Positions 3,351 through 19,024 of a stretch of DNA of 19,024 nt are shown here, piece by piece. Both the position numbers and the translations under genes were made by a program. This stretch comes from Oscillospiraceae bacterium (GTDB lineage: Bacteria > Bacillota > Clostridia > Oscillospirales > Oscillospiraceae). The DNA lies in contig CACXDT010000118.1 in NCBI GenBank assembly GCA_902766405.1, positions 1 through 19,024 of the forward strand, written 5' to 3'. Position 1 is the stretch's first letter; the number at the start of each line of letters is the position of its first letter. The notes under the pieces are model-generated. The model saw nothing but the letters and a program-made list of their open reading frames with translations. It made no database searches and was not told the origin of the DNA.

Positions 3351-3358
3351 GAGGCACT

Positions 3359-6062: not shown

Positions 6063-6082
6063 GAAGGAGGAGGCAAAAACCC

Positions 6083-6573: not shown

Positions 6574-6577
6574 CGCG

Positions 6578-6877: not shown

Positions 6878-6914
6878 GGCCACCGGAAACCAAGAACGAT
6901 AGGAGGACTACCCC

Positions 6915-7112: not shown

Positions 7113-7115
7113 ACA

Positions 7116-7277
7116 ATGGCTTACAATCTGATGCACCGTATCATCACCACCGCAAAGAAAGAGGGAACCATCGGCGAGAAAAAGGCCGGTATCATGGACA
7201 AGCTCGATGCCTTTCTGGCGGCCGACCGTCTCACGGCGGAGCAGTACAGGGAGCTTGTCGCGCTGATCGACGCATGA
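7116..7277 (+). CDS. XkdX-like small phage protein, copy 1 (below the ORF-track size cut-off)
   Basis: Hand translation gives MAYNLMHRIITTAKKEGTIGEKKAGIMDKLDAFLAADRLTAEQYRELVALIDA* (53 aa). The GAGGAGGG RBS lies 7 nt upstream. It is a clear paralogue of 7358-7525 and resembles the XkdX pattern (...fl....IT.eeY.el). Confidence 0.65.
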   Translation: MAYNLMHRIITTAKKEGTIGEKKAGIMDKLDAFLAADRLTAEQYRELVALIDA

Positions 7278-7357
7278 GCGCCCTCGCCACCCGCCTCGCC
7301 GGGTGGATCATCAACCGACGTTTTCAACACGATCTTTCAAGATTGGAGGAATACACC

Positions 7358-7525
7358 ATGACCTATAAACTGATGAAGCGCATCATCGAAAACGGCCTCA
7401 AAAAAGGGAACCTTGACCGCGAGGCCACCTTGCAGAAGCTCGATGTGTTCCTGATGGCCGACCGGATCACGGTCGAGGAGTACCAGGAGCTCGTCGAAAT
7501 GATGGGAGGCGCGGACGATGAATAA
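7358..7525 (+). CDS. XkdX-like small phage protein, copy 2
   Basis: ATG at 7358 lies 7 nt after GGAGGA (7345-7350), so the listed 7274 start was rejected. MTYKLMKRIIENGLKKGNLDREATLQKLDVFLMADRITVEEYQELVE aligns with copy 1. Its 3' end overlaps the start of the DGR target gene. Confidence 0.7.
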   Translation: MTYKLMKRIIENGLKKGNLDREATLQKLDVFLMADRITVEEYQELVEMMGGADDE

Positions 7526-8735
7526 CTCCCCGCTGGAATTTCTGGCGAAGAAGTACGGCAACGTCGTCAAGTATGACGCCGCCGGGAACGTGGCCGGGAT
7601 CTATGTGAAATTCCAGAAGATGAAAAGCTCCGACCTCGTGGCCGGGCTGCCGGAGCGCACGCATCCCGCGTTCATAATCAACGGCGTGGAGCAGGATTAT
7701 ATCTTGCTCGGCAAATACAAGGCCGGAGAAAACGGCGTCAGCGGCGGCGCTCTCGTAAGCGCGCCGAACATTATGCCTGCAAGAAGCCTCGGCGCGGATC
7801 AGTGCCTCTCGCGGATGAAAGCGGCGGGCACCGGCATCACGGGCATGACCGTGGCCGACTACGGCTTTATCAAGCTGCTGGCGCAGAAAGAGGGCTGGGT
7901 GCCGAAGGGTAATACCTATTGGGGCCAGAGCCACAAGGACGCGACGGCCTGGGAGGTCGGCAAGGCGCTGACCGTCGGCGCCGTCCGCGGCTATGAGGGC
8001 TGGCGCTATGAGTGCCTGATCGCGCACACCACCGCCGCCGAGCTGAAGCCGGATATCGCGCCGACCTACTGGAAGAAGCTGAACTTCGTCGGGGGCGTGT
8101 CGCAGGACACCGGCAAAGACGCGAACACTCAGACCGGCTATCGCACGCTCAACGGCACCGGCCCGCTGGACTGGTATCTCGGCAACGACCCCGGCAACCT
8201 GGCGGATATCATCGGTTCCAGCCTGGAGCAGCAGTACGGCTACCGCATCGTGGATTGTGAGCTGCAGATCCTCGAAGATAACAACGCCGCCGACCCGAGC
8301 GCCGACCTCTCCGCAACCTCCGCCGCGTGGAAAGCGATCCTTCCGAACGCCTCCGACGACGGCTATACGCTGGTCGCTCCGGGAACGGCCGGGACGCTGC
8401 ATTGGAATTGGACGGGCACCGCAATCCAGCTCGACACGCAATGCGACGACCTGACCGTAGGTTCGAAAGGGCAGTCGTTCAAGACGCTCACCGCGCACGC
8501 CGAACGCCTCCCCTATGTTCCGAGCATCGTCAAGGAGCTGGGTCTTTTCCCGACAGGTTCGGGCGACAACACCGAGGGCTATTACTACGTCAACTTCGTC
8601 GCGGGAGAGCGTTTTCCCCGGCGTGGCGGCTACTACTACCTCACCAGCAGCGCCGGGCTTGGCTCTGTGCATGCCTACTACGAGCGCGGCTATGCGGCCA
8701 CGAACTATGGCTGCCGCCCGCGCTCCCTTCCCTGA
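7518..8735 (+). CDS. DGR target (variable) protein, C-type-lectin/FGE-sulfatase-like fold; probable receptor-binding protein
   Basis: 405 aa with a GGGAGG RBS 8 nt upstream. The last ~40 codons carry the VR. The C-terminus RRGGYYYLTSSAGLGSVHAYYERGYAATNYGCRP has the typical CLec VR scaffold (GG.w......G......N...GfR). The N-terminal HPAFIINGVEQDYILLGKYKAG...MTVADYGFIKLLA resembles FGE/CLec-type DGR targets. It is the last gene of the tail-fibre region. Confidence 0.85.
   Translation: MNNSPLEFLAKKYGNVVKYDAAGNVAGIYVKFQKMKSSDLVAGLPERTHPAFIINGVEQDYILLGKYKAGENGVSGGALVSAPNIMPARSLGADQCLSRMKAAGTGITGMTVADYGFIKLLAQKEGWVPKGNTYWGQSHKDATAWEVGKALTVGAVRGYEGWRYECLIAHTTAAELKPDIAPTYWKKLNFVGGVSQDTGKDANTQTGYRTLNGTGPLDWYLGNDPGNLADIIGSSLEQQYGYRIVDCELQILEDNNAADPSADLSATSAAWKAILPNASDDGYTLVAPGTAGTLHWNWTGTAIQLDTQCDDLTVGSKGQSFKTLTAHAERLPYVPSIVKELGLFPTGSGDNTEGYYYVNFVAGERFPRRGGYYYLTSSAGLGSVHAYYERGYAATNYGCRPRSLP
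8608..8727 (+). repeat. DGR variable region (VR)
   Basis: Ungapped 120-bp alignment to 9578-9697 (offset 970). There are 13 mismatches, at 8621, 8631, 8637, 8640, 8641, 8650, 8665, 8670, 8676, 8679, 8691, 8697 and 8698, and each faces an A in the TR. It lies in frame at the 3' end of the target CDS. Confidence 0.95.
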
Positions 8736-8766
8736 ATCCCTGACCCCTGGACGCTGAATCCCTGAC
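8732..8766 (+). repeat. 13-bp direct repeat CTGAATCCCTGAC x2 flanking the target-gene stop
   Basis: The copies lie at 8732-8744 (containing the TGA stop 8733-8735) and 8754-8766, separated by 9 nt. They sit between the VR end and the GC hairpin. Confidence 0.8.
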
Positions 8767-8790
8767 GGGGCGGCGCGGTAGCGTCGCCCC
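8767..8790 (+). promoter_or_regulatory. GC-rich hairpin downstream of VR (candidate DGR target-recognition cruciform)
   Basis: GGGGCGGCG-cggtag-CGTCGCCCC forms a 9-bp stem (one G-T pair) with a 6-nt loop, 40 nt after the VR/TR homology ends. No U-tract follows on either strand, so it is not a classical terminator. Confidence 0.5.
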
Positions 8791-9091
8791 TCAAAAGAAA
8801 CTCGCTCCATTCCGTTTCCACGGTTTCCGAAAGAGCCGGGAAAACTGCATATTCGCTCCTTCCTTTTTCGGGCACAAATTCAAACCCGCTTCGCTTGGCT
8901 TTGAATTTGTCAACACAGAGAGGGGGCGCGGCGGGTAGCAATTTGCACAACAGGGAGCAGCACCGACCACGCCAAAACCGCCGGAAAAACTTTCGAAGGG
9001 GTTTTACGCGCGCGGTCTAATCTTCTGAGTATTTATTATATACTCCCCCTTACCCCCAAATCGCCCGATTCGGCAAAATGACGGAGGAACC

Positions 9092-9508
9092 ATGCCGGAA
9101 ATCAAGTACACTGACGCCAACCCAGGCCCTTGCTGCCTGAAGATTGAGGACATGATCGACTATGCCAGGCCGATGCTTCAGCGCTGGCCGCCGTTCTTCC
9201 GATACACACTCGGCGAGGAGATCATGAACGAAATGCTGCTGATGCTGCGCCTGGCGACCAAGGCACGCCTGCGCTATATGAACAAAAGCACGCTGCAAGA
9301 CCTGGACACAAGCAAAGAAATCCTGAAAACCTTGGTCAGATCCGCGAACCGAACCGTTTTCACAGACCGGAACGGAGAAGAAAGGCGTCTGCTCAGTAAC
9401 CACAGCTTCGATGTTTGGAGTGGGTACATTGAAGAGATCGGCAAGCTGATCGGCGGCTGGATCAACGCCGTCAGCGGACGGACGAATCGGGGCGACCCCA
9501 ACAAATAG
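9092..9508 (+). CDS. avd: DGR accessory variability determinant (Avd), four-helix-bundle family
   Basis: 138 aa and basic, predicted all-helical. The RYTLGEEIMNEMLLMLRLATKA...K...L..L......L..L...A and IEEIGKLIGGWI pattern is typical of Avd/S23-ribosomal-like proteins. It lies between VR and TR, as in BPP-1. GGAGG lies 4 nt before the ATG, which is a short spacing. Confidence 0.8.
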   Translation: MPEIKYTDANPGPCCLKIEDMIDYARPMLQRWPPFFRYTLGEEIMNEMLLMLRLATKARLRYMNKSTLQDLDTSKEILKTLVRSANRTVFTDRNGEERRLLSNHSFDVWSGYIEEIGKLIGGWINAVSGRTNRGDPNK

Positions 9509-9577
9509 CCGCCATCTGGCGGTTATCCGGGAACGTGCCGTGATTTGGGTAGCTATAGTTTATCCAAAATGCTCTTT

Positions 9578-9697
9578 AGCGTTTTCCCCGACGTGGCGGC
9601 AACTACAACAACACCAGCAACGCCGGGCTTGGCTATGTGAATGCCAACAACGAGCGCGGCAATGCGAACACGAACTATGGCTGCCGCCCGCGCTCCC
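9578..9697 (+). repeat. DGR template region (TR)
   Basis: Non-coding copy of the VR containing 28 adenines, 13 of which are substituted in the VR. Read in the VR frame it is rich in AAC/AAT codons (NYNNTSNAGLGYVNANNERGNANTNYGC). It has the same orientation as VR and RT and lies 260 nt upstream of the RT start. Confidence 0.95.
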
Positions 9698-9957
9698 AGC
9701 ACACATCAAAAGAGCCGAAAAACCACGAGTTACCGGCCGCAATTCTGATGGGAGGGGCGCGTTTCCGTGGCGGGCCAGGCCCGCCTAAATGAAAATCCCG
9801 CACGGCTCCGGCAAGAACACTCCGGGGCATGGCCGGGCGGGAATCGCTGCGAAGCGCCCGGAAGGGCGTAATGCTCAGCCTGTCAGCAGCTTCCCGGTAG
9901 GGAAAACAGGCTACGCATAACGGGAAACGTCACGCGCAGCAGAACGGAGGCGGTCAC
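9698..9957 (+). ncRNA. TR-RT spacer, probable structured 3' part of the DGR RNA
   Basis: 260 nt with no credible ORF. Local helices visible by eye are GGCGGGC-cag-GCCCGCC (9769-9785), CGCCC-ggaa-GGGCG (9855-9868), and the nested AGCCTGT...TTCCC-ggta-GGGAA...ACAGGCT (9877-9912). In BPP-1 the equivalent spacer is part of the priming RNA. Confidence 0.5.
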
Positions 9958-11259
9958 TTGGAGGGGCTGCACAATCTGAGAGACCGCATCTGCGACTTTG
10001 ATAACCTCATGGGCGCGTACCGTGACGCCGCACGGGATAAGCGATACCGCGAGGAAGTCATAGCCTTTACTCTTAACCTCGGCGAAAATCTGCGTCAGAT
10101 CCAGCGCGAGCTTCTGGACATGACCTACACCGTGGGGCCATACCGGGAGTTCTATGTGCGCTTTCCCAAACCGCGCCTTGTCATGGCGCTGGGCTTCCGG
10201 GACCGCGTGGTACAGTGGGCCATCTATCGGCAGATCAACCCCTACCTGGACAAGCGCTACATCGAGCACAGCTACGGTTGCCGCACCGGCAAAGGCACAC
10301 TGGCCGCCGCCGAGTGCCTTTTCAACTGGCAGCAGCTTATCAGCCGCAAAGACGATGCCGACGAGTGGCAGCTTATCAAGGGCGATATCTCGAAGTATTT
10401 CTACCGCGTCGATCACGGCAAAGTACTGGAAACCTACGGCGAAGTATCAGACGACACCTGGTTTTCGTGGCTGATCGGCACGATCATCCGCAATCCAGAG
10501 GTTCCTTTCGGCCTGCCTGTCGGCATGAAGCCGGACGATTGCCCGCGCAGCCAACGGCTTTTCGAGGTTGGGATGCCAATAGGCAATCTGACGAGTCAGG
10601 AGACGGCAAACCTGTTCCTTGACCGGCTGGATCAGTTTTGCAAGCACACGCTGAAGCTGCACTACTATGTGCGCTATATGGACGACTTCTGCATCTTTGT
10701 CAAGGGCAAGGAGGAGGCCAAACGGGTATACGCTGAGATCGAGCGCTTCTTGCGCGAAACGCTGCTGCTGGATATCAGCCCCAAGAGCCGGATTCAAAAG
10801 GCCACGGCGCCGGTTGAGTTCGTCGGCTACCTGATAACACCGCACGGGATCCGGATGCGGAAGAAAACGACGCGGCATATCAAGCGGAGCCTGCGCTTTA
10901 TTTCGGCGTCCTTTGCGCTGGGCGCAATCGGCTATGAAAAAGCAATGGCATCCGCGATCTGCTACATCGGGATGTGTAAACACTGCGAGGGCTACAATCT
11001 GCTGCGGTGGATCGAGGAGAACTTCACGTTGGAAAGAGGCGATGCAGCCATGAGCCAGCTTGACGGGCCGCCCTGCGGAGGGCGGCGTTTTTATTCCATC
11101 CAGCCAAACGAGGACGGCAGCGTAGACGTATATCTTCGCCCGGATGATACAGGCCTGATCCGCGTCGTGCGCGGCGTAACGCCTTATGACGGTCTGGATG
11201 ATGATATACGGGCGCGGTATGACGCCTGGCGCGAGAGCGCTGAAACAATCTTTCTTTAG
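9958..11259 (+). CDS. DGR reverse transcriptase
   Basis: 433 aa with a TTG start 7 nt after GGAGG (9946-9950). The RT motifs are IKGDISKYFYRVDH (motif 3/A-like), GMPIGNLTSQETANLFL (the DGR-diagnostic [ILV]GxxxSQ) and YVRYMDDFCIF (YxDD box). It lies immediately 3' of the TR. Confidence 0.95.
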   Translation: MEGLHNLRDRICDFDNLMGAYRDAARDKRYREEVIAFTLNLGENLRQIQRELLDMTYTVGPYREFYVRFPKPRLVMALGFRDRVVQWAIYRQINPYLDKRYIEHSYGCRTGKGTLAAAECLFNWQQLISRKDDADEWQLIKGDISKYFYRVDHGKVLETYGEVSDDTWFSWLIGTIIRNPEVPFGLPVGMKPDDCPRSQRLFEVGMPIGNLTSQETANLFLDRLDQFCKHTLKLHYYVRYMDDFCIFVKGKEEAKRVYAEIERFLRETLLLDISPKSRIQKATAPVEFVGYLITPHGIRMRKKTTRHIKRSLRFISASFALGAIGYEKAMASAICYIGMCKHCEGYNLLRWIEENFTLERGDAAMSQLDGPPCGGRRFYSIQPNEDGSVDVYLRPDDTGLIRVVRGVTPYDGLDDDIRARYDAWRESAETIFL

Positions 11260-11271
11260 GAGGAATTGGGT

Positions 11272-11631
11272 ATGGAAAACCTGACCCCGGATCAGCTCCA
11301 AACCACCGTATATGTGATTCTCGCCCTCTTTGGATCTCTTATAACGGTGGATAAGGTGCTTGACATTTTCAAAAAGTGGAGAGCCCCAGCCAAGAATGCC
11401 GCCGAGGATGTGGAAAAAAAATTTTCCAACGATAAGCACCGCCTCGACGACCACGAGCGGGAGCTTGAACAGCAAAAGAGGGATATCGAGAGCCTGAAGG
11501 AGAGCTCCCGCGTCACGTCGGCGGGCGTCATGGCCCTGCTCGATCACGAGCTGCACAATGGCAATGCAGATCAGATGCAGGGCGCCCGCGACGATATCAT
11601 GGCATATCTCCAGGGACTTATGACAAAGTAG
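11272..11631 (+). CDS. N-terminally membrane-anchored coiled-coil protein (possible holin-like/lysis-associated)
   Basis: ATG at 11272 lies 8 nt after AGGAGG (11258-11263), so the listed TTG at 11266 was rejected. It has one predicted TM helix (VYVILALFGSLITV) followed by a charged coiled coil. Function is inferred only from topology and its post-tail position. Confidence 0.55.
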   Translation: MENLTPDQLQTTVYVILALFGSLITVDKVLDIFKKWRAPAKNAAEDVEKKFSNDKHRLDDHERELEQQKRDIESLKESSRVTSAGVMALLDHELHNGNADQMQGARDDIMAYLQGLMTK

Positions 11632-11636
11632 CGCTT

Positions 11637-11678
11637 TCGGTATGTCCGGCAACGGAGGGCAACCATACCGATTTTTTC
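11637..11678 (+). terminator. Putative intrinsic terminator/attenuator
   Basis: TCGGTATG (11637-11644) pairs with CATACCGA (11664-11671) and is followed by TTTTTT. The loop is large (19 nt) but has a possible inner CCG/CGG helix. Confidence 0.45.
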
Positions 11679-11714
11679 AACAATCCATCAACAAATCATC
11701 AGGAGGAAAAGCAA

Positions 11715-12320
11715 ATGAAAAAAATCCTTGTTCTTATGCTCGTGCTGCTTATGGCCGTGATGCTCGCGGCCTGCACCGTGCCCGCCATGCAGAACCCCGA
11801 CGGCACTGATACCGTGGCGGGCGTGGCGATCATGACCGGGCTCGATATCCTGGAAAAGGTCGTCGTTACCGCCCTCGGCATCGCTGGTACAGCATGGGCC
11901 GCCAAATCGAAGGACAATAAGCACATCCAGAACATAGCCCTTGCATTTGACAATGTTTTGAAAGCCACCCGTATAACAGTCGGCGAGCTGAAACAGACCA
12001 CAGTTGACCACTTGAAAGCAGAAAGCGAAGATGGCAAGCTCACCCCGGACGAAATTGCACAGTTAAACAGCGACCTCCTCACGCTCACGCTGAAAAAACT
12101 CGACGAGCCCACGAAAAACCTGTTGGCTGCCGCCGGTGTGGATATATGCGCCCTGATTGCGGGAGCCGGTGAGGATTGGGTACGCGAAACGAAGCTTGGC
12201 GGGGTCGCTGTTCTCGGCCAGATCATGGACGCGACGGACGCCATCACGGAGAACGCCGGTGCAGTTGACGAGGCCGCTGCGGCCATCGAAAAGGCTGCGG
12301 CGGCGATCAAAGGCGAGTAA
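11715..12320 (+). CDS. Putative lipoprotein (possibly LL-H-holin-like or superinfection-exclusion)
   Basis: 201 aa with an AGGAGG RBS. The signal peptide MKKILVLMLVLLMAVMLAAC ends in an L-A-A-C lipobox. The mature part is helical and Ala/Lys/Asp-rich. The functional call is speculative. Confidence 0.6.
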   Translation: MKKILVLMLVLLMAVMLAACTVPAMQNPDGTDTVAGVAIMTGLDILEKVVVTALGIAGTAWAAKSKDNKHIQNIALAFDNVLKATRITVGELKQTTVDHLKAESEDGKLTPDEIAQLNSDLLTLTLKKLDEPTKNLLAAAGVDICALIAGAGEDWVRETKLGGVAVLGQIMDATDAITENAGAVDEAAAAIEKAAAAIKGE

Positions 12321-12328
12321 CTATCACA

Positions 12329-12366
12329 CGAGGCCCGGACGTGTGCCGGGCCTCGGTTGTTTTTTC
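12329..12366 (+). terminator. Rho-independent terminator
   Basis: A perfect 10-bp GC-rich stem CGAGGCCCGG / CCGGGCCTCG with loop acgtgtg is followed by GTTGTTTTTT. It lies 9 nt after the lipoprotein stop. Confidence 0.85.
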
Positions 12367-12404
12367 AGCTTGTTACTTGTCATAATGGGAGGATTGTAAA
12401 ACAC

Positions 12405-13010
12405 ATGAAACTGGTACAGCCTATCCGAGACTTGGACACGCTGCAAAAGTGCTTCGAGATCGCGCGCGAGCATGACGCCCGCCGGAAAACAGGAGAAGTC
12501 TGCTGGGAATTGATATTGCTCGTCGGCCTCAATACCTCGCTGCGCGTGAGCGATTTCCGGCGCTTCAAGGTGTCCGACCTCCGGGGCCGCGACTATGCAC
12601 AGATGCAGGCCAAAAAAACCGGCAAGGAGGCGCGGATCCTGATTAACCCTCAGGCCCGGAAGGAGATCAACCGCCTGCTGGCCGGGAGAAAGCCGGACGA
12701 GTTCATTTTCCAGAGCCGCCAGAAGGACGGCGTTACCCACAAGGCCCGCCCGATTTCCAGACAGCGGTGTTATCAGATCATGAACGTCATCGCCAAGAAA
12801 GCCGGGATTGAGGAACGAATCGGCTGCCATACGCTGCGGAAAACCTTCGGTTACCATTACTACCAGACGACCGGCGATGTGGTGAGCCTGCAAAGGATCC
12901 TGGGCCACTCCTTCCAGCGGGAAACGCTGGTTTATATCGGCGTCGTTCAGGAGAACATCGACGAATCCATGATGAAAATGAACATGCTGACCGGGCGGCG
13001 AGCCCGGTAA
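12405..13010 (+). CDS. Short tyrosine recombinase (phage-integrase catalytic domain only)
   Basis: ATG at 12405 was chosen because the listed 12357 start lies inside the terminator. The catalytic signature is in order: NTSLRVSD (Arg I), KTGKEARI (Lys), HTLRKTF (His-x-x-Arg), LGHS (His) and TLVYI (Tyr). At 201 aa there is no room for a normal N-terminal core- or arm-binding domain. Confidence 0.8.
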   Translation: MKLVQPIRDLDTLQKCFEIAREHDARRKTGEVCWELILLVGLNTSLRVSDFRRFKVSDLRGRDYAQMQAKKTGKEARILINPQARKEINRLLAGRKPDEFIFQSRQKDGVTHKARPISRQRCYQIMNVIAKKAGIEERIGCHTLRKTFGYHYYQTTGDVVSLQRILGHSFQRETLVYIGVVQENIDESMMKMNMLTGRRAR

Positions 13011-13060
13011 CGTGCATGTTTTGAGAAAAGATGCGCGAAATGCGCAGAAAGGACTATACG

Positions 13061-13603
13061 ATGGAAAAGACACGTTTAGAGAGAATCAACGAGTTTATCA
13101 GGATCATGGGGGAAGCGCTCGGGCCCAACACTGCCATTACGCTTGCGGGCGAACTTGAACGGATGGGCTTCTTCGATGCCCCGGCCTCCTCAAAATATCA
13201 TTCTGCCTACCCTGGCGGGCTCTACGATCATTCCAAAGCCATGATGGACGCGCTTTTAAATCTAACCTATGACCTGAATCTTGGATGGAGCCGTCCGGAG
13301 AGCCCGTGCATCGTCGGGATGCTCCATGATCTTTGTAAATGCGATCAGTACAAGCAGGACGAGGACGGCAGCTTTTCGTGGCAACCCGACCAGGTTCTAT
13401 GCGGTCATGGGGATAAGTCTGTGATTCTTGCGCAACAGCTCCTCCCTCTGACCGAGGAAGAAATCTTGTGCATCCGCTGGCACATGGGCGCGTACTGCGA
13501 TAAATCCGATTGGGGCTATCTCGGTGCGGCCATCGAGAAATACCCGAATGTGCTGTACACCCACACCGCCGATATGATTGCATCACGCATCAGGGGAGTA
13601 TGA
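13061..13603 (+). CDS. HD-domain phosphohydrolase (YhaM-like HD fold)
   Basis: PASSKYHSAYPGGLYDHS ... IVGMLHDLCKC ... HGDKS ... HTADMIASR gives the H...HD...H...D metal-ligand series typical of HD hydrolases. The start is ambiguous between 13031 and 13061. I chose 13061 for its AAAGGA RBS 7 nt upstream. Confidence 0.7.
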   Translation: MEKTRLERINEFIRIMGEALGPNTAITLAGELERMGFFDAPASSKYHSAYPGGLYDHSKAMMDALLNLTYDLNLGWSRPESPCIVGMLHDLCKCDQYKQDEDGSFSWQPDQVLCGHGDKSVILAQQLLPLTEEEILCIRWHMGAYCDKSDWGYLGAAIEKYPNVLYTHTADMIASRIRGV

Positions 13604-13613
13604 GGGCCCGACC

Positions 13614-13982
13614 ATGACAGACAACGAAATACGCGCCGTTGTATGCGCTCTGCAGCCGGGCGACCATATCCTCGTGAACGATTGGAACGACACATACACC
13701 GTGCGCGGCGTCTCACAGCATTATGTCGTAGCCGATTATCAGGCGGACACGGAATACCCCTTGTACACCATTCTCGCCAAAGAGCCGACGGAGATCCCGC
13801 GCAACGGCATACCGGCTGGCGCGATGGTATGCGGCCCCGATTCCTGGGTGTTCGGCTATTGGGGCGGCTACAACTTCGAGCAGCCCGACGTAATAGCGGC
13901 CTACCTCGAATCGCTGGAAAGCGGGGAAACGGAAATGTCCCTGCGCCATCGTGCGGAGATCGTGAGCATCAGGAAAGTATGA
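13614..13982 (+). CDS. Hypothetical protein
   Basis: ATG at 13614 lies 7 nt after GAGGG, so the listed 13578 start (overlapping the HD gene) was rejected. 122 aa, no family recognised, followed by a strong terminator. Confidence 0.6.
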   Translation: MTDNEIRAVVCALQPGDHILVNDWNDTYTVRGVSQHYVVADYQADTEYPLYTILAKEPTEIPRNGIPAGAMVCGPDSWVFGYWGGYNFEQPDVIAAYLESLESGETEMSLRHRAEIVSIRKV

Positions 13983-13985
13983 AAA

Positions 13986-14022
13986 ACGCCCTCGGGGATC
14001 CTCCCGGGGGCGTCTATTTTAT
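13986..14022 (+). terminator. Rho-independent terminator (possibly bidirectional)
   Basis: ACGCCCTCGGGG-atcc-TCCCGGGGGCGT forms an ~11-12 bp stem and is followed by CTATTTTATT. On the opposite strand the same hairpin is followed by TTTTTC. Confidence 0.8.
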
Positions 14023-14347
14023 TGCCGTCTTTCTCCCTTTGGGCGCTCTGTTTGACATATTGAGGCGAGGAAAAACACAGGATCGGCGGTTTTTCAAAAA
14101 GCCTTGATTTCAGCGGAAAACAGGCCCGCAAATGAGTTTAACACAACATCCCATTTTGACAAAGCCAGCACCGCGCGCGAGGGCCCTTTTTGGTTGTTGA
14201 CAAATGCAGCGGTTTTCATCCTTTCCGGCGACAGATCGCAGCGGAAACGACCTTATAGGGGCGCACGGATTTGTCAACCATTTCGGCGGCGTCAACGGAA
14301 TGGTTCGACGGCGTTGCACTTTAACTTGCTCGCAATTTGCCACGCGC

Positions 14348-14363
14348 GGTGCAAACTTGCACC
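14348..14363. promoter_or_regulatory. 16-bp palindrome GGTGCAA-ac-TTGCACC (candidate operator)
   Basis: Perfect 7-bp inverted arms. Further TTGCAC/TTGC..GCAA half-sites lie just upstream (14314-14319 and 14326-14335). It sits in the non-coding island between convergent terminators. Confidence 0.5.
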
Positions 14364-14477
14364 AAAGCAGCCTGCTGAGCGGGTTTTCTTACTTGCCTAC
14401 CATTTGCGTGACCTCACGAAAATGATATGAGTTACACTTCCGGGCGGCAAAAAGTGAAACTCATTTCCGAAAGGGCA

Positions 14478-14508
14478 TAAAAAAAGACGCCCCCGCAGAG
14501 CGGGAGCG
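14478..14508 (-). terminator. Rho-independent terminator ending the minus-strand operon
   Basis: The minus strand reads CGCTCCCGC-tct-GCGGGGGCG followed by TCTTTTTTTAT. It lies 27 nt downstream of the TAG stop at 14535-14537. Confidence 0.8.
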
Positions 14509-14534
14509 TGAAAAAGAACAATATATGCCGGATG

Positions 14535-14759
14535 CTAAACGGCTTTTATCTCTACGCTAAAGCGCAATTCGAGTTCGCGGATCCTCGCGACGACCTCCTG
14601 GATTTCCTCTTCGATACTTTTCGGGATCGGATCATTATGACAGCTCTCAATCACTTTTTGGAGCTCCGTACCAGCTTCGTCCTCGCGCTCGCCGTATATC
14701 TTATAGGCGACAATCTTGAAATTGCAAATCGTACCAAAAAGGCCTTCCACCTGGCACAT
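14535..14759 (-). CDS. Hypothetical small acidic protein
   Basis: 74 aa. The ATG is preceded by GAAAGGAG (7 nt spacing) contributed by the conserved junction repeat. It is the last gene before the terminator. I preferred it over the overlapping plus-strand ORF 14508-14780, which has no RBS or operon context. Confidence 0.65.
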   Translation of the reverse strand: MCQVEGLFGTICNFKIVAYKIYGEREDEAGTELQKVIESCHNDPIPKSIEEEIQEVVARIRELELRFSVEIKAV

Positions 14760-14772
14760 GATAATCTCCTTT

Positions 14773-14794
14773 CAAAATGATCGGGCGGCGTTAG
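14773..14794 (-). repeat. Intercistronic junction repeat, copy 1
   Basis: The minus strand reads CTAACGCCGCCCGATCATTTTG and continues into AAAGGAG (RBS). The TAA is the stop of 14791-15330. Confidence 0.9.
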
Positions 14795-15330
14795 TCGTTC
14801 TCGCGGAGCGCAACAAAGGCGACAAACCCCTGCCAGACATACACCGAATAGCGGCCTTGCAGCGTGCGAGACACTGCATCACCGCAATCAAACGTGAAGA
14901 TATTAAATTCTCCGTCGATGATCGTAAAGAAATCCATGATTGAATTGCAAATAAAGTCACTCTCTTTCGTGAACACAGCGACGCGCGTCACGCCGTCACC
15001 CTCGCCGTTCGGAATCAACACGGAAAACTGCTTGTTCCCGACTTTCACGGAACCGGCTTCGCTCTCTGTCTTGAAACACCGTTCGCCAAATTCTTCCCGG
15101 ATGAATTTCCAGCACAGAGCCGGGCGCTCTCGCCGCATCAGCTCTTGATAAAACTGCTTGCTACGCTCCTCCCGGTGCGAGAGATACAGATCGACAAACT
15201 CCTCAACGCTGCGGGACGCTTCAGCGCAGGCATCAACAATGGCCTGGTCAGTTGAAAACTCGTTGTTCATGCAACGACGGAGAAAATTATCTCCGGTCTC
15301 GTGCGGGAAAACAATGCTATCACGGTTCAT
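14791..15330 (-). CDS. Hypothetical protein
   Basis: ATG at 15330 (MNRDSIVF...) lies 8 nt after AAGGAG. The listed TTG at 15348 lies inside the junction repeat and was rejected. 179 aa, and the TAA stop is part of junction repeat copy 1. Confidence 0.7.
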   Translation of the reverse strand: MNRDSIVFPHETGDNFLRRCMNNEFSTDQAIVDACAEASRSVEEFVDLYLSHREERSKQFYQELMRRERPALCWKFIREEFGERCFKTESEAGSVKVGNKQFSVLIPNGEGDGVTRVAVFTKESDFICNSIMDFFTIIDGEFNIFTFDCGDAVSRTLQGRYSVYVWQGFVAFVALREND

Positions 15331-15345
15331 TGTATGGTCTCCTTT

Positions 15346-15367
15346 CAAAATGATCGGGCTGCGTTAG
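15346..15367 (-). repeat. Intercistronic junction repeat, copy 2
   Basis: The minus strand reads CTAACGCAGCCCGATCATTTTG and continues into AAAGGAG. The TAA is the stop of 15364-15708. Confidence 0.9.
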
Positions 15368-15708
15368 CACCATTCGTCGGGAACGATCAGAATACCTCCA
15401 TCGGGGAGATCATAGACGGAGCCAGGCTCGTCATCCTCGCCGCTGTAGATTCTCGGGATATCGCCGTTGTGATCGGATTCGATCACGGCAAACTCGGCAT
15501 CAGGCATGGCATCGACTATATGCGCCACGCGGCACACAGTGCCAGCCATAGCTTCGATAGAGCCAGGAGCGACAGGAAAGCCCACACATCCCGTATAGAA
15601 AAGCTTGGGGATTTGGTCGTCGTCATAGGACGACCAATTATCAACAACGATATTGTTGCCGTAGATGATAATACCGGCTTCGTGCCGGGTCAGTTCTTGC
15701 AGTGTCAT
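15364..15708 (-). CDS. Hypothetical, strongly acidic protein
   Basis: ATG at 15708 (MTLQEL...) lies 9 nt after GGAGG, so the listed 15753 start was rejected. 114 aa with 21 Asp/Glu against 4 Lys/Arg. The TAA stop is part of junction repeat copy 2. Confidence 0.7.
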   Translation of the reverse strand: MTLQELTRHEAGIIIYGNNIVVDNWSSYDDDQIPKLFYTGCVGFPVAPGSIEAMAGTVCRVAHIVDAMPDAEFAVIESDHNGDIPRIYSGEDDEPGSVYDLPDGGILIVPDEWC

Positions 15709-15721
15709 GTTTGTTACCTCC

Positions 15722-15746
15722 GTGATTTGATGGTGATTTGATGGTG
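15722..15746 (-). repeat. Tandem 11-bp repeat (2.3 units) in a 5' leader
   Basis: The plus strand reads gtgatttgatg gtgatttgatg gtg. The minus strand reads CACCATCAAATCACCATCAAATCAC and directly abuts the GGAGG RBS of 15364-15708. Confidence 0.85.
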
Positions 15747-15783
15747 TTATCATACACGATTAGCTGTCCAGAAAAACGGACTT

Positions 15784-15805
15784 TGAAATGATCGGGCGGC
15801 GTTAG
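15784..15805 (-). repeat. Intercistronic junction repeat, copy 3
   Basis: The minus strand reads CTAACGCCGCCCGATCATTTCA. The TAA is the stop of 15802-15984. Confidence 0.9.
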
Positions 15806-15984
15806 TCCTTGCCGCCCTTGAAGGTGTCGAACACGGACGGAACCTGTTGGGAGATCACCACGCGGGGCAGCTCCTCCGGCTCGTTCTCGTGCTCCTCCGG
15901 GTGCCGGTCGATGTGGACGGCGGCAATCGTGCCGATAATCATAAAGCCGCCGAACATCGCCAGGATGGCATAGATCACGCTCAT
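15802..15984 (-). CDS. Small membrane protein (one TM helix plus acidic tail)
   Basis: 60 aa with GGAGG 7 nt upstream. The start lies 4 nt after the RHH gene stop. It has a TM segment VIYAILAMFGGFMIIGTIAAV followed by HPEEHENEPEE. The TAA stop is part of junction repeat copy 3. Confidence 0.65.
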   Translation of the reverse strand: MSVIYAILAMFGGFMIIGTIAAVHIDRHPEEHENEPEELPRVVISQQVPSVFDTFKGGKD

Positions 15985-15987
15985 AGA

Positions 15988-16197
15988 TCAACCTCCGTTC
16001 CGGGCTATGTCCTCCCGGATCAGGCGCTTAATGTAGCGTTGCACACTATCCTCTTTTTGGATCCTCGACAGAATATCAGCGTCGGTCTTGACGTTAAACT
16101 TCATGCTGATGTGCTTTGCGTTCACGGCATCGTACCGCGCCTTTGCTTCGTTCTGCGCGCGGCGCGCCTCGTCGGGCGTGTAGACCGTTTTCGGCAT
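15988..16197 (-). CDS. Ribbon-helix-helix (Arc/CopG/MetJ-type) DNA-binding protein
   Basis: 69 aa with an AAAGGAG RBS 8 nt upstream. The C-terminal KHISMKFNV (beta strand), TDADILSRIQ (helix) and SVQRYIKRLIREDIA (helix) fit the RHH layout. It is the first gene after a near-consensus promoter. Confidence 0.65.
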   Translation of the reverse strand: MPKTVYTPDEARRAQNEAKARYDAVNAKHISMKFNVKTDADILSRIQKEDSVQRYIKRLIREDIARNGG

Positions 16198-16229
16198 GGT
16201 GTTGGCTCCTTTCTTTCGGTGTTACCGTC

Positions 16230-16258
16230 AGTATAATACGACGCGGCGCGCGTGTCAA
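16230..16258 (-). promoter_or_regulatory. Near-consensus sigma-A/sigma-70 promoter
   Basis: The minus strand reads TTGACA (16258-16253), a 17-nt spacer, then TATACT (16235-16230), about 30 nt upstream of the RHH gene RBS. The -35 box is fused to junction repeat copy 4. The spacer contains the palindrome ACGCG-cgc-CGCGT (16241-16253). Confidence 0.7.
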
Positions 16259-16276
16259 ATGATTCGGCGGCGTCAG
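16255..16276 (-). repeat. Intercistronic junction repeat, copy 4 (fused to promoter -35)
   Basis: The minus strand reads CTGACGCCGCCGAATCATTTGA, and its 3' TTGA begins the TTGACA -35 box. Confidence 0.85.
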
Positions 16277-16292
16277 GCCGCGAAATTGTTTT

Positions 16293-16649
16293 TTATCCTT
16301 GCTGCCCCCTCCTCTCGTAGTCATCGCAAGATGTTACCACTTCGTTTTCTTCGTCAAATTCAAGCACGCCGTAGCAGTAGAGTTCGCATCCTGCCGGGCT
16401 CTTGTCGTGATTACAAGTATCACACAAGGATTTCATGGCACAAGCCTCTTGCAGATAGCTCGCATTGATAAGCTTTACACGATGCTCCAGCGCCTTTATA
16501 GCAGGGTCGGGATCGGTGAATGCCTGATCGGGTGTTGTGTAATACACATCTTCCTCCGGCTTTCTCCAAACGATCATAAAGCGATTATTTGCGGCCATCA
16601 AAGCCCAGGTAATACCGCGCTTGTCCTCTATGGGGTGGATAATATTCAT
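16293..16649 (-). CDS. Hypothetical Cys-rich protein
   Basis: ATG at 16649 (MNIIHPIEDK...) lies 8 nt after AAGGAGG. The listed 16829 start would run through the upstream small gene and its junction repeat, so it was rejected. 118 aa, with C-terminal CDTCNHDKSPAGCELYC. Confidence 0.7.
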   Translation of the reverse strand: MNIIHPIEDKRGITWALMAANNRFMIVWRKPEEDVYYTTPDQAFTDPDPAIKALEHRVKLINASYLQEACAMKSLCDTCNHDKSPAGCELYCYGVLEFDEENEVVTSCDDYERRGQQG

Positions 16650-16693
16650 ATACTTGCCTCCTTGCCCGCGTATAAGGCCCACGGGCGGGCGCG

Positions 16694-16715
16694 TGAAATG
16701 ATTTTGCGGCGTTAT
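16694..16715 (-). repeat. Intercistronic junction repeat, copy 5
   Basis: The minus strand reads ATAACGCCGCAAAATCATTTCA. The TAA is the stop of the 46-aa gene. Confidence 0.8.
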
Positions 16716-16852
16716 GCGCCGACTTCCTGCCACTCGGGGATCCGGTCGCCGTCGTCCTCCTCGTTGCCCTCGGCGGCGAGGATGCGCAGCATATTGATAA
16801 CGACGATCAACGTGCCGAACAGGGTGCATCCCCTTTTTCTCTTTCCGGTCAT
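16712..16852 (-). CDS. Micro membrane protein, 46 aa (below the ORF-track cut-off)
   Basis: Hand translation gives MTGKRKRGCTLFGTLIVVINMLRILAAEGNEEDDGDRIPEWQEVGA*. The RBS GAAAGGAG comes from junction repeat copy 6, although the 12-nt spacing is long. The TAA stop is part of copy 5. Its architecture (basic N-terminus, TM helix, acidic tail) parallels 15802-15984. Confidence 0.5.
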   Translation of the reverse strand: MTGKRKRGCTLFGTLIVVINMLRILAAEGNEEDDGDRIPEWQEVGA

Positions 16853-16871
16853 GTGGTGTTGGCTCTCCTTT

Positions 16872-16893
16872 CGGAATGATTTGGCGGCGTTGC
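16872..16893 (-). repeat. Intercistronic junction repeat, copy 6
   Basis: The minus strand reads GCAACGCCGCCAAATCATTCCG and continues into AAAGGAG (RBS). Confidence 0.8.
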
Positions 16894-16939
16894 CGCTGGG
16901 CGGGTTATTTCTATGCCGCCACCCGTGGGGCGGGCTGTG

Positions 16940-17626
16940 TCATGCGTAGGTGGAATAGTCGTAGAGCTTGCCAAACTCGACCGGATGGAGCGTGACGCCG
17001 GCGCTCAACGTGGGATCGAGGATATAAGGCACATCGGGCGAGAAATCTGTAAACTTGCTGCGTACCGTGTACTGCTTATCGTTGCGGAACACGTCGCGGC
17101 GCGGGCGCTTCAGGCCGGTCATGTGAGAATCCTCGCCGGACGCGGCGGCGAGCTCGCGCAGGATCAAGGTGTGCTTGCCGCGCAGGCCCACAACCTGATA
17201 AAAGTCGATGTTGGTCTGCTCCCAGCCCCAGGATGAATACAGGATATCGCCGACGTGGACGCCCTCGGCGTTCTGCGTGGGCTCCTCACGGGAGAGCATA
17301 TAGGCAGATTCAGCGGCGAACTCCTCCGGGGTATAGGTCAAAAGCCTCTCGCGGATCCCGCTGCGCTCGGCGCGCTGATCGGCGTACATTTTGCCGAGCT
17401 TTTCGCGGTGCTGCTCCTGCTCCTCCTCCGTCCAGGCTCCCATGCCGTAGGCCTCAAAGCTGTTAGGCCCGGCGGGCTTTATGGCCTCGATGTAATAATC
17501 CGGGTGACGGGCAAGGAACTGCGAGCGCGCGGCGTCGAGCGCCTCAGCCTCTTCGGCGGTAAAGGTTGTCAGGTGGACGGGGCTTTCCTTGTCGGCCTTG
17601 CGGCCCCAGTGGATGATATAACGCAT
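16940..17626 (-). CDS. Hypothetical protein
   Basis: 228-aa ORF whose ATG is preceded by AGAAAGGA from the 59-bp junction unit. No family recognised. Confidence 0.7.
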   Translation of the reverse strand: MRYIIHWGRKADKESPVHLTTFTAEEAEALDAARSQFLARHPDYYIEAIKPAGPNSFEAYGMGAWTEEEQEQHREKLGKMYADQRAERSGIRERLLTYTPEEFAAESAYMLSREEPTQNAEGVHVGDILYSSWGWEQTNIDFYQVVGLRGKHTLILRELAAASGEDSHMTGLKRPRRDVFRNDKQYTVRSKFTDFSPDVPYILDPTLSAGVTLHPVEFGKLYDYSTYA

Positions 17627-17633
17627 TGTTTTA

Positions 17634-17692
17634 TCCTTTCTGCCCTCGTGACCTCCGGGGCGGGCATGATTTGAAATAATCCGGCGGCGTTA
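17634..17692 (-). repeat. 59-bp junction unit A (contains junction repeat copy 7, 17672-17693)
   Basis: The plus strand reads tcctttctgccctcgtgacctccggggcgggcatgatttgaaataatccggcggcgtta, identical to 17961-18019. On the minus strand it starts with the TAA stop and ends in AGAAAGGA (RBS). Confidence 0.95.
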
Positions 17693-17953
17693 GGCTTCGA
17701 AAAAGCGCGCAGGATCATCCGGGTCTACCAAGCGGCCAAAAATGTTTTTCCCGTCGTTCTGCCAATTCAACAGGGTTTTCCCAAGCTCGCAGCCCTCCGC
17801 CGTCTCGTAGACGGAATACCCGGCAGACATTCTTTCGATTCCGTTGTTTCTCACGCCCTTGAGGAAGAGTATCATTTGATCGAGCCGGTCGATGTCCACT
17901 GTTCCTATCTCCCCCAGCGGATTCAAGGTTTTGCAGTACATGAAGCGGTACAT
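17690..17953 (-). CDS. Hypothetical protein
   Basis: 87-aa ORF bounded on both sides by the perfect 59-bp junction unit. The TAA stop lies inside copy 7. Confidence 0.65.
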   Translation of the reverse strand: MYRFMYCKTLNPLGEIGTVDIDRLDQMILFLKGVRNNGIERMSAGYSVYETAEGCELGKTLLNWQNDGKNIFGRLVDPDDPARFFEA

Positions 17954-17960
17954 AAAGCTT

Positions 17961-18019
17961 TCCTTTCTGCCCTCGTGACCTCCGGGGCGGGCATGATTTG
18001 AAATAATCCGGCGGCGTTA
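17961..18019 (-). repeat. 59-bp junction unit B (contains junction repeat copy 8, 17999-18020)
   Basis: Perfect 59/59 direct repeat of 17634-17692. The flanks diverge immediately on both sides. Confidence 0.95.
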
Positions 18020-19024
18020 ATCCGCCAGGCTCGCGGCGAACTCCTCCGGCGTGAGGGCCGTTTCCTCGTCTGCCCGGCGGACGATCTCGGCATAGGCCGC
18101 TTGCCCCTGCCAGGGGCGCCCGTCGGCGTAGGTCATGTTTGAGGCCGTGTGCTCGTAGGTGACGTTTTTCGGGCCACAGCGCACGACACGCACGACGCCC
18201 CAGCGCTTGACGACGATCAAATCACCCTTTTTCAGATTTTTCCGGCTGAACTCCACGCCGCCCAGCGCGTCAAGCGCGTCCTGATAATAGCCAAGCTTAT
18301 CAAGCTCGACCTCGATCCGGTCAAGCCAGTATTCCAGATTCTCGCGGGCTTTATCAAGGCTGATCGGCTCGCCTGCGTAGTTTTTCAGCTCCTCGCCAGC
18401 TTCCAGACGTGTGACCGTGCGCTCCTGCGCGTCGTAGCTCCTGCGCAGCGCGCGGAGATTTGCTTCACACTCATTGATGCGGCGTTGTATAAAACCCTTG
18501 TCGGTCAGCTCCTTCCCGGCCGCCGTGCGGCGGGCGGTCTCGGCGCGCTCCTGCCAGTATTCCGACTTGCGGAACTCGTCAAAACCACGCTCCCAGGCTG
18601 CAAACATCTTTTCCCGGCGGCGTCCGAACGCCCGGCCCGCGCTGGTGTTCACGATGGGCTGTGTGAAAAAGGCGATATCACCGTGCATTTTCTCGATGGG
18701 GGCTTGCAACTGCTCGCCGCGTTTTTCGGCGGCGTCGGCGCGGGCGTCGTACCTCTCCGCGCGGCGCTCGGCGCGCTCCTGCTTGCGTTCCATCTGCTCG
18801 GCAAAGCTCAGGCGCTCGCCCGTTTGCCCGGCGTCGGCCAGGCCGATGCGCTCCGCACAGCGGCGCGCCCAATGCAAATTAGGCTCTTTGCAGCGGCTGA
18901 TCCAGCAACCGGAATTGCGGCCCCACAAGAAATTGCTCTTGATATCGGCTTTCTGCTCGTCGGTCAGGGCGGAATAAACCGACTTTTCAAAGTGCAGCTC
19001 CAGCTTGCCCGTCTCGCGGTTGAC
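18017..19024 (-). CDS. DUF3560-like protein, 5'-partial (continues beyond window)
   Basis: Hand translation upstream of the listed TTG at 18928 stays open to the window edge (VNRETGKLELHFEKSVYSALTDEQKADIKSNFLWGRNSGCW...). The ...LTDEQKADIKSNFLW....GCW module and FTQPIVNTSAGRAFGRRREKMFAAWERGFDEFRKSEYWQERAE resemble the DUF3560 core as I recall it (GQPILVGHHSE.R.R...). The CDS is firm; the family call is moderate. Confidence 0.6.
   Translation of the reverse strand, partial: VNRETGKLELHFEKSVYSALTDEQKADIKSNFLWGRNSGCWISRCKEPNLHWARRCAERIGLADAGQTGERLSFAEQMERKQERAERRAERYDARADAAEKRGEQLQAPIEKMHGDIAFFTQPIVNTSAGRAFGRRREKMFAAWERGFDEFRKSEYWQERAETARRTAAGKELTDKGFIQRRINECEANLRALRRSYDAQERTVTRLEAGEELKNYAGEPISLDKARENLEYWLDRIEVELDKLGYYQDALDALGGVEFSRKNLKKGDLIVVKRWGVVRVVRCGPKNVTYEHTASNMTYADGRPWQGQAAYAEIVRRADEETALTPEEFAASLAD

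Follow-up and report, generated by a model that had tools for sequence, protein, structure and literature searches.

The 19,024-nucleotide (nt) stretch of Oscillospiraceae bacterium DNA analysed here (contig CACXDT010000118.1 of assembly GCA_902766405.1, positions 1 to 19,024; hereafter the window) belongs to a temperate tailed phage of gut or rumen Clostridia, and an element of 17–21 bases, (Y)AACGCCGCC-nR-ATCATTT, is repeated in one orientation at the gene junctions of this phage's accessory operon. The motif is real; it is widespread within a single group of phages and had not been described before. The best reading, to which we give about an even chance, is that of a mobile intercistronic leader of the mRNA that also serves as a linker for recombination. 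Its two halves differ in standing: the role in recombination was shown by comparison of relatives, and the role in the RNA is inferred. In the following, the genes of the minus-strand operon in the window are named G1–G10, the loci of relatives and the window's own contig (L358) are given as L-numbers (L029, L174 etc.), and coordinates without an L-number are those of the window.

Searching the window with the pattern TAACGCCGCCNNATYATTTYR and allowing up to three mismatches gave exactly eight matches, all on the minus strand, whereas 0.03 were expected by chance and none of 200 shuffles reached eight. The eight same-orientation copies reported in the initial annotation were thus confirmed at their positions. 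An independent repeat finder recovered the same family together with a perfect 59-nt duplication (17634–17692 and 17961–18019). As had been proposed, the TAA of the motif terminates the upstream gene in six cases, namely copy 1 (14773–14793, junction G9|G10), copy 2 (15346–15366, G8|G9, in the variant form ACGCAGCC), copy 3 (15784–15804, G7|G8), copy 5 (16694–16714, G4|G5), copy 7 (17672–17692, G2|G3) and copy 8 (17999–18019, G1|G2), and the last two each start one of the identical 59-nt units. The two remaining copies lie 20–50 nt beyond the actual stop codon. Copy 4 (16255–16275, G5|G6) has the form TGACGCC, is found 20 nt past the G5 stop and overlaps the −35 box of the G6 promoter with its 3′ end, and copy 6 (16872–16892, G3|G4) has the form CAACGCC with a GCGGC arm upstream. 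Reading the sequence also upheld the earlier statement that copies 1, 2 and 6 abut the ribosome-binding site (RBS) of the next gene, with the Shine-Dalgarno (SD) sequence GAAAGGAG. Copy 3 is followed by a small hairpin and a 77-nt spacer before the G8 start, and copy 5 by a hairpin of a second type (hairpin B, see below). The motif itself holds no RBS, and its distance to the start codon in the window was 15–77 nt. In total, eight of the nine junctions carried the motif, the exception being G6|G7, where the genes are 3 nt apart. The repeat finder also reported two degenerate copies on the minus strand past the operon terminator (14272–14294 and 14296–14317); their 3′ halves form an inverted repeat (AACCATT..AATGGTT), and they are kept in L174 but missing from L029 and L064.

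When G6 was looked up as an exact protein, contig ERZ914794:scaffold_1003 (L358) was obtained. This is the window's own contig: the two agree without a difference over 13,037 nt, and L358 prolongs the operon by 7 kb upstream, to 19 genes. In the L358 operon the motif was present at all 13 junctions of at least 30 nt and at none of the five tightly coupled junctions (3–15 nt). It was absent from the remaining 8 kb of the phage, which comprise the structural genes, a diversity-generating retroelement (DGR) and the lysis region, and from the opposite strand. Viral contigs were scanned for exact matches, and about 15 loci held clusters of the motif on one strand. When 185,579 species genomes were scanned, single matches occurred in all phyla and were compatible with chance (about 550 chance matches expected by our own composition-free arithmetic), and the only clusters were those of phage-like contigs that had been binned with Oscillospiraceae, Lachnospiraceae and Clostridiales (L145, L163, L174 and L185). 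A weight matrix built from 71 junction copies gave 174 hits on the operon strand of the array loci and none on the opposite strand; 122 of these hits had an explicit junction context, and the 16 that fell in long open frames had lower scores. In ten contigs that carry G6, 131 hits were obtained, compared to none on the other strand, so that no antisense copy was found in any array locus or G6-bearing contig scanned. The preferred variant of the motif differed by lineage, for example ACGCCYCGAAATCATTT in L215 and ACGCCGCAACAACATTT in L214.

The initial annotation had allowed for a motif that is missing from related elements, or for a generic genomic repeat that is scattered over coding regions and both strands of the host. 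Neither was found: the motif was present in related phage elements, rare in coding sequence, without a hit on the other strand and no repeat of the host genome. A relation to repetitive extragenic palindromic (REP) elements was rejected as well, since the motif is non-palindromic, its clusters are confined to phage-like Clostridia contigs and its single matches fit chance. A likeness to CRISPR repeats or their anti-tags (ATTTCAA plus a GC hairpin, in reverse) was set aside, the motif in that comparison being antisense to the transcript. A possible complementarity of ACGCCGCC to the 5′ region of 16S rRNA was likewise considered and set aside; this region is buried in the ribosome. The exact strings of the motif and of the junction hairpins were looked for in the literature, and none was found in the papers searched.

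The function of the motif as a cassette boundary emerged from the closest relatives. L174 shares 92–98% identity with the window, L029 and L064 are further relatives, and the differences consist of whole cassettes. L174 and L029 have no G2, and the gap falls exactly between the two 59-nt units. In L174, G9 comes before G8, the reverse of the order in the window, and G10 is absent. In L029, G7 leads straight to a motif copy and the terminator, and G8–G10 are absent. In L064, a G2 homolog is found at a different position, behind a type-II hammerhead ribozyme. Every breakpoint observed between near-identical relatives, whether it resulted from deletion, reordering, loss or translocation, was located inside the motif, and the alignment blocks overlapped there by 20–25 nt. 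The ACGCAGCC variant travelled with the upstream gene G8, as seen in L174, and the bases 3′ of ATCATTT travelled with the downstream gene, which places the crossover in the 3′ part of the motif. Modules within a junction were exchanged too, as the G1|G3 junction has one type of hairpin (hairpin A) in L029 and the other (hairpin B) in L174. Furthermore, whole junction units were duplicated, 59 nt long in the window and in L214 as hammerhead-plus-leader units of about 110 nt. The genes that flank the motif also differed, as the initial annotation had asked: ten contigs with a 100% identical G6 had different cassette sets on both sides of it. Judged from these alignments, the motif marks the points at which cassettes are gained, lost and reordered, and the earlier suggestion of cassette boundaries used for modular exchange was borne out by the breakpoints and by the varying sets around G6.

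These results raised the possibility that the motif is a recombination linker and nothing else, without any role in expression. It would persist and spread only because cassettes can hitch-hike on its short repeated homology from junction to junction and from phage to phage, and gene conversion would keep its copies uniform. The location of all observed breakpoints in the motif, a homogenised variant in each lineage, the duplication of entire junction units (59 nt in the window, about 110 nt in L214) and the lack of a structural or accessibility signal are all as such a linker would predict. However, the same 17-mer is intact in lineages with unrelated genes and a lower G+C content (L145), where neutral homology would be expected to drift. 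The order of the modules is fixed, with the motif always first, between the stop codon or cleavage site and the RBS, and the arms upstream of the motif covary with its GC block. We consider a linker without an expression role unlikely, but not so unlikely that it could be disregarded.

In relatives, self-cleaving ribozymes occupy the same junction slots. Searches against Rfam identified a pistol and a twister-like RNA in L030, the type-II hammerhead in L064 and a pistol in L214, and a pattern search revealed 37 distinct junctions with type-I hammerheads. An alignment of 13 of these 37 showed an invariant catalytic core and compensatory changes in 8 of the 18 pairs. The core CUGANGA..GAAA..NUH and three covarying helices, which we required of a hammerhead, were present in junction inserts of relatives and in L358 outside the window. 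Four type-I hammerheads belong to the operon of the window itself, at sites upstream of where the window ends (L358 3781–3835, 4073–4127, 4509–4565 and 5216–5272), and in helix I two of them have CCCGU/ACGGG and two have UCCGC/GCGGA. The Rfam hammerhead models reported none of the type-I hammerheads of relatives or L358, even at E ≤ 1; these were found by pattern and confirmed by covariation. In the window itself there was no Rfam family at E ≤ 1 and no hammerhead by either Rfam or pattern. Hammerhead-like junction inserts with C in place of U at core position 4 (CCGAYGA) were also seen in several lineages (L194 6217 and 6938, L214 3395, L145 4154 and L205 5932).

The position of the ribozymes relative to the motif was informative. 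In most type-I hammerhead junctions, the motif was located 5–20 nt beyond the cleavage site. Several hammerheads were also preceded by a motif copy whose last bases (UUC) pair in helix I, and the motif is therefore transcribed. In L064, the type-II hammerhead lies between the stop codon and the RBS of the G2 homolog, where the window has the motif and hairpin A in front of the same ribosome-binding region. A second such pair was found upstream of the gene for the DUF3560 protein, where a hammerhead between two motif copies in L362 (5028–5110) takes the slot that in L358 (7057–7116) is filled by the J6 insert described below. These two pairs show that the modules are interchangeable. The initial annotation had suggested an RNA processing or stability site. 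The processing setting was supported indirectly, as context, by the ribozymes in the same slots and by the four hammerheads in the same operon. The motif itself is probably not a cleavage site, as it stays in the leader after the hammerhead cut. The first ten bases of the motif (UAACGCCGCC; e.g. 17999–18008) correspond to the 5′ segment of the Rfam twister-P1 consensus (UAA cleavage site, P2 strand and GCC). A twister was nevertheless rejected, because the window junctions have no 3′ half (P4, P2′, GAGGG and P1′) and gave no Rfam hit at E ≤ 1.

The exchange between ribozyme and motif could also mean that a protein does the ribozymes' job, with a host or phage endoribonuclease cutting in the AU block and hairpin A or B protecting the new 5′ end. 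Such an arrangement would explain why a type-II hammerhead, whose cleavage leaves a 5′ hairpin before the RBS that mirrors hairpin A, replaces the motif and hairpin A before the same gene, and an AU-rich segment does lie between GC-rich segments. Yet in most of the 37 hammerhead junctions the motif is only 5–20 nt past the ribozyme cut, which would make a second cut redundant, and in three junctions of the window the motif abuts the RBS with no protective hairpin. We therefore regard an endoribonuclease site as improbable.

Two further readings treat the motif as DNA: a site-specific recombination site for cassette capture, like the attC sites of integrons, or a promoter that a phage-specific polymerase or sigma factor would recognise. 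The cassettes are mostly promoterless and in the same orientation with the repeat between them, and a gene for a small tyrosine recombinase (12357–13010; a 201–217-aa Phage_integrase protein) lies near the array end. However, this gene converges on the distal end of the array, the junctions show no dyad symmetry and lack the GTTRRRY/RYYYAAC core pair of attC, and no intI with an attI site and a Pc promoter reading into the array is adjacent. With regard to a promoter, the motif forms part of hammerhead helix I and thus lies within the transcript and not ahead of a transcription start; it lacks the two-hexamer layout of sigma-70 promoters, and the true sigma-70 promoters are separate modules. 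Both readings were rejected on anatomy, and we give them next to no credence.

In the model that we favour, the element, written as RNA Y-A-ACGCCGCC-n-R-AUCAUUU-caa, would form the conserved core shared by a family of intercistronic leaders of modular build, located in the accessory or early operon of a group of temperate phages from Clostridia of the gut and rumen. The motif is transcribed as part of one long polycistronic mRNA, and its GC block would pair with a short G-rich arm just upstream. In ribozyme junctions, this arm would be the new 5′ end (GCGG.. or ACGGG..) created by hammerhead cleavage. The pairing would yield a 5′-proximal hairpin and leave the AU block single-stranded ahead of the RBS, and the leader, hairpins and ribozymes together would make each cassette a self-contained expression unit. 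At the DNA level, the same-orientation leader at every long junction offers portable short homology for the deletion, insertion and reordering of cassettes and for their movement between phages. Synthetic insulators such as RiboJ and Csy4 sites work in a related manner, with an engineered ribozyme or hairpin before the RBS that uncouples a cistron from the upstream sequence; to our knowledge, no natural equivalent of the sequence reported here has been described.

Three observations support the proposed pairing. Hammerheads whose product begins with GCGG were followed by a motif with CCGC and those whose product begins with ACGGG by variants with CCCG. Copies without a stop codon had matching upstream arms (GCGGC/GCCGC, GGGCG/CGCCC and CGGGC/GCCCG). 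Finally, 48–50% of the copies were able to form a helix of 4 bp or more with the 18 nt upstream of them, compared to 29–31% of shuffles. Several results weigh against the leader model. The case for a role in the RNA is inferential throughout. The predicted accessibility of the motif equalled that of composition-matched controls, and the junction folds were no more stable than shuffles (z from −1.2 to +0.2). In the stop-type copies, the pairing of the GC block with the upstream coding sequence was weak (mean z −0.35, p = 0.04, uncorrected for relatedness), and for this reason we did not regard a hairpin enclosing the stop codon as general. The covariation of the two classes with the hammerhead products stems from very few independent events, and CCCG variants also occur at hammerhead-free junctions. 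Moreover, the lineage variants would be accounted for just as well by concerted evolution through recombination alone or by co-evolution with a binding factor, and the hairpin model leaves the strict conservation of the AU block (AUCAUUU) unexplained.

Because the evidence for pairing is thin in these respects, with few events, no folding or accessibility signal and an unexplained AU block, a binding site for a single sequence-specific trans-acting factor is a serious rival. A phage or host protein, or an RNA, could control all cassettes by binding the motif on the mRNA, or as an orientation-dependent roadblock on the DNA in the way of the stoperators of cluster A mycobacteriophages. Stoperators are asymmetric sites of 13–17 bp that are distributed genome-wide, with one copy overlapping the early lytic promoter (PMC9283540, PMC6550527), and they share with the motif the short intergenic gaps, the single orientation relative to transcription and the lineage-specific variants. 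The motif consists of two conserved blocks of 8 and 7 nt around two loosely constrained positions, its orientation is strict, tandem copies are found 21–28 nt apart in some junctions, and its lineage-specific variants could track the specificity of a factor. In addition, G6, which faintly resembles ribbon-helix-helix (RHH) proteins, has common homologs in the arrays, and a motif copy abuts or overlaps the G6 promoter. In contrast to stoperators, the motif is confined to one operon, with no copy among the structural, DGR and lysis genes of either the window or L358, and the main operon promoters of L358 (near 2945) and L030 (near 1010) have inverted repeats and no motif. These two differences disfavour a stoperator-like role. 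The absence of any antisense copy from all loci is a further argument against a trans-acting factor. We give this reading the same low but appreciable probability as a linker without an expression role.

The initial annotation had proposed the RHH protein encoded in the array as a candidate binder, which was not supported. The RHH assignment is weak (Pfam RHH_7 at E = 0.02 in one homolog), and for G6 itself a sequence search of the PDB gave no match and a single-sequence AlphaFold model was all-helical and of low confidence. RHH proteins bind symmetric or tandem sites, and the spacer of the G6 promoter holds a palindrome that is a likelier operator than an asymmetric 17-mer.

The reverse transcriptase of the active DGR allows one more reading that brings RNA and DNA together. 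Ribozymes with shared helix-I sequences, mostly CCGC/GCGG, could excise single-gene RNAs whose 5′ ends dock on other ribozymes or on the motif. Ligation would then yield circles or re-joined, permuted transcripts, the reverse transcriptase would copy them back into DNA as cassette permutations, and the motif would be the common docking and joining sequence. We consider this highly improbable, only marginally less so than the attC-like and promoter readings.

Besides the motif, the junctions are built from a small set of other modules. The motif is followed by nothing but the RBS, by hairpin A or B, by a promoter, by a terminator or, in relatives, by a ribozyme, and the order is fixed: the motif comes first after the upstream stop codon or ribozyme cleavage site, and the RBS of the next gene comes last. 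The second GC motif of the initial annotation, GCCCGCCC, was indeed read in four junctions, and it turned out to be the 5′ part of two separate hairpin modules located just 5′ of the SD sequence. Hairpin A (17969–17992, minus strand; GCCCGCCC-CGGAGGTCACGA-GGGC) has a 4-bp stem and a 12-nt loop and is directly followed by the SD sequence AGAAAGGA (17961–17968); a second copy (17642–17665, minus strand) is directly 5′ of the G3 SD. Its form, GCCC-CGGAGGTYACGA-GGGC followed by AGAAAGGA, is almost invariant, and the loop displays a perfect SD-like GGAGGU. Hairpin B (GCCCGCCCGTGGGCCTTATACGCGGGC; 16664–16690, minus strand) is directly 5′ of the G5 SD and has the general form CCCGCCCGYGGGC-nTnR-TACGCGGG, in which the CCC(GC) segment is able to pair with either of two partners. 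The exact core of hairpin A was found in more than 120 viral loci (L238–L357), amounting to at least 134 distinct phage gene contexts, and that of hairpin B in 58 viral loci (L188–L237) with 64 distinct contexts. Both were nearly always directly 5′ of an RBS, with the motif upstream in only 11 contexts for A and 20 for B, and rare compensatory variants back both stems. Hairpin A matched no Rfam family, and its string was not found in the literature. Hairpins A and B are independent elements with a much wider distribution than the motif.

The junction of copy 6 holds an insert with small GC hairpins (J6; 16893–16939, minus strand; ..AGCCCGCCCCACGGGTGGCGGCATAGAAATAACCCGCCCAGCGGCA). The 42-nt J6 sequence (CGCCCCACGGGTGGCGGCATAGAAATAACCCGCCCAGCGGCA) is also present in L358 (7074–7115) upstream of the DUF3560 gene, between two motif copies, and in the same slot L362, L361 and L364 have a hammerhead. 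A J6-related sequence was also seen at the end of the operon's 5′ leader (L358 3295–3340), where L030 has the twister. The insert could be a decayed ribozyme or an unknown one. A strong sigma-70-type promoter for G6-G7 (16230–16258, minus strand; TTGACA-17-TATACT, 11 of 12 positions) has the palindrome ACGCG-CGC-CGCGT in its spacer, and G6 homologs elsewhere likewise have their own promoters. G6 (69 aa; 15988–16197) and G7 (60 aa with one transmembrane helix; 15802–15984) form a coupled pair on the minus strand (15802–16197) with no motif between them, and this pair looks like a separately expressed, moron-like regulator pair. G6 was also 100% identical in at least 21 contigs while its neighbours varied. 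A start-associated module, GAAAGGAGCCAACACC, precedes the G6 ATG (16198–16213, minus strand) and G4 (16853–16872) and recurs across the phage family. The operon ends at an intrinsic terminator (14487–14509, minus strand), which in relatives is kept directly after a motif copy.

Compared to known systems, the element is closest in function to the promoter-early stem-loop (PeSL) cassettes and closest in layout to the start-associated sequences (SAS) and extended SAS (ESAS) of cluster K mycobacteriophages, and it is a member of neither family. PeSLs are mobile regulatory cassettes of T4-type phages that combine a sigma-70 promoter with a terminator-like stem-loop (Arbiol et al. 2010, PMC2839356; PMC4122927). 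In both systems, short composite motifs reach from the stop codon to the next RBS among small genes of unknown function in plastic regions, with the motif described here at all long junctions of a variable operon, and recombination between copies explains the indels and replacements among close relatives, here with the G2, G8/G9 and G8–G10 breakpoints in the motif. The differences are equally clear. A strong promoter defines PeSLs, whereas only one of eight motif-bearing junctions in the window (junction 4) has a promoter, as a separate module downstream of the motif. The stem-loop of PeSLs is a terminator or attenuator, whereas the motif is a linear 17-mer and hairpins A and B are located at the RBS and have no T tract. 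The junctions are read through as one operon, self-cleaving ribozymes are among the optional modules, Clostridia take the place of enterobacteria as hosts, and there is no sequence similarity.

The SAS of cluster K phages is a conserved 13-mer that includes the RBS and is located immediately before start codons, with a function thought to be translational (Pope et al. 2011, PMC3203893). The resemblance drawn in the initial annotation holds for the layout, with an asymmetric short repeat in a near-single orientation at many gene boundaries of differing gene families and an optional inverted-repeat extension upstream. It does not extend to identity: the SAS contains the RBS, whereas the motif is found near the stop codon, at a distance of 0 to more than 60 nt upstream of the RBS, and the sequences are unrelated. 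The SAS-like part of the present junctions is instead the separate module GAAAGGAGCCAACACC-ATG. Hammerhead clusters have been described that flank single prophage genes of differing identity, anti-restriction genes among them, and the proposal was that they divide long transcripts into mRNAs of gene length (Perreault et al. 2011, PMC3088659). That work described the ribozymes and not a conserved linear leader that flanks them and fills ribozyme-free junctions, and the present window differs in having no ribozyme (Rfam, E ≤ 1). The intergenic repeats of halovirus HF2, which carry promoters (PMC8707807), are similar in that repeated intergenic units set the expression context of each gene.

The surrounding genes place the operon in its phage. 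The plus strand encodes a tailed-phage set of a tape-measure protein, Baseplate_J, a complete DGR and the small tyrosine recombinase, and the small genes G1–G10 form a minus-strand operon that converges with these genes. The DGR (7518–11259, plus strand) comprises a target gene (7518–8735) with a variable repeat (8608–8727), bAvd (9092–9508), a template repeat (9578–9697) and a reverse transcriptase gene (9958–11259), and all 13 differences between template and variable repeat are at template adenines. On the minus strand, the 5′ end of G1, which encodes the DUF3560 protein (18017–19024), is cut by the window edge. It is followed by the cassettes G2 (87 aa; 17690–17953), G3 (228 aa with an internal TPEEFAA segment; 16940–17626), which is among the most conserved genes of these arrays, G4 (46 aa; 16712–16852) and G5 (118 aa; 16293–16649). 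Beyond G6-G7, the cassettes G8 (15364–15708), G9 (14791–15330) and G10 (14535–14759) span 14535–15708 and vary in order or presence in L174, L029, L359 and L366. Scans of the operon genes against Pfam and PHROG gave only DUF3560 for G1 and weak PHROGs of unknown function for G3 and G6, and the earlier description of the genes between the repeats as orphans was therefore fair. In L358 the operon starts at a sigma-70 promoter near 2945 that adjoins a tRNA attachment region. The prophage end (L358 1300–1900) adjoins a host tRNA (1809–1896), with two more partial copies of the 5′ part of this tRNA, and about six tandem repeats of 29–30 nt lie upstream of the operon promoter (L358 2390–2560), with a similar repeat field in L030. 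No relatives were found among GenBank phages and PLSDB plasmids, where the sole matches were a 34-nt match to hairpin A (MT835520.1) and a 100-nt match of G3 coding sequence to conjugative plasmids. Other RNAs were seen in related phage loci, namely a group I intron (78.7 bits) and an RT-2 RNA (171.6 bits), at L020 3599–3809 and L185 7425–7641, respectively.

Many otherwise unrelated array proteins of 93–528 aa share a C-terminal peptide, h-T-P-[E/D]-E-F-A-A-x-h-x-x-stop (L030, L029, L174, L194, L215, L219, L233 and others). In G1 the tail is ALTPEEFAASLAD, encoded at 18020–18058 on the minus strand. The tail was seen in 26 distinct cases that vary in their synonymous codons, so that it is the peptide that is conserved, and there is a loose likeness to the ends of ssrA tags. 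The G3 family holds the peptide internally (YTPEEFAAE; 17313–17332, minus strand), with a second domain behind it, as would result from the fusion of two cassettes. In some junctions (L030 4731–4747, L194 7924 and L219), the motif is used in a second register with the stop codon inside it (GCC GCC TAA TCA TTC or GCC GCC TGA TTA TTC), and its GC block there encodes the last two alanines of the shared tail.

The job of self-cleaving ribozymes in bacteria and phages is a long-standing open question, and these arrays provide a comparison made by nature: upstream of one gene with an unchanged ribosome-binding region, a hammerhead is present in one phage and the linear motif with a hairpin in a relative, which makes the question testable. 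The motif and the two hairpin modules are also good handles with which to search metagenomes for such plastic regions. It appears that phages of gut Clostridia assemble and rearrange their sets of small accessory genes, which probably have anti-defence roles, via one portable junction sequence that would supply the expression context and the crossover site together.

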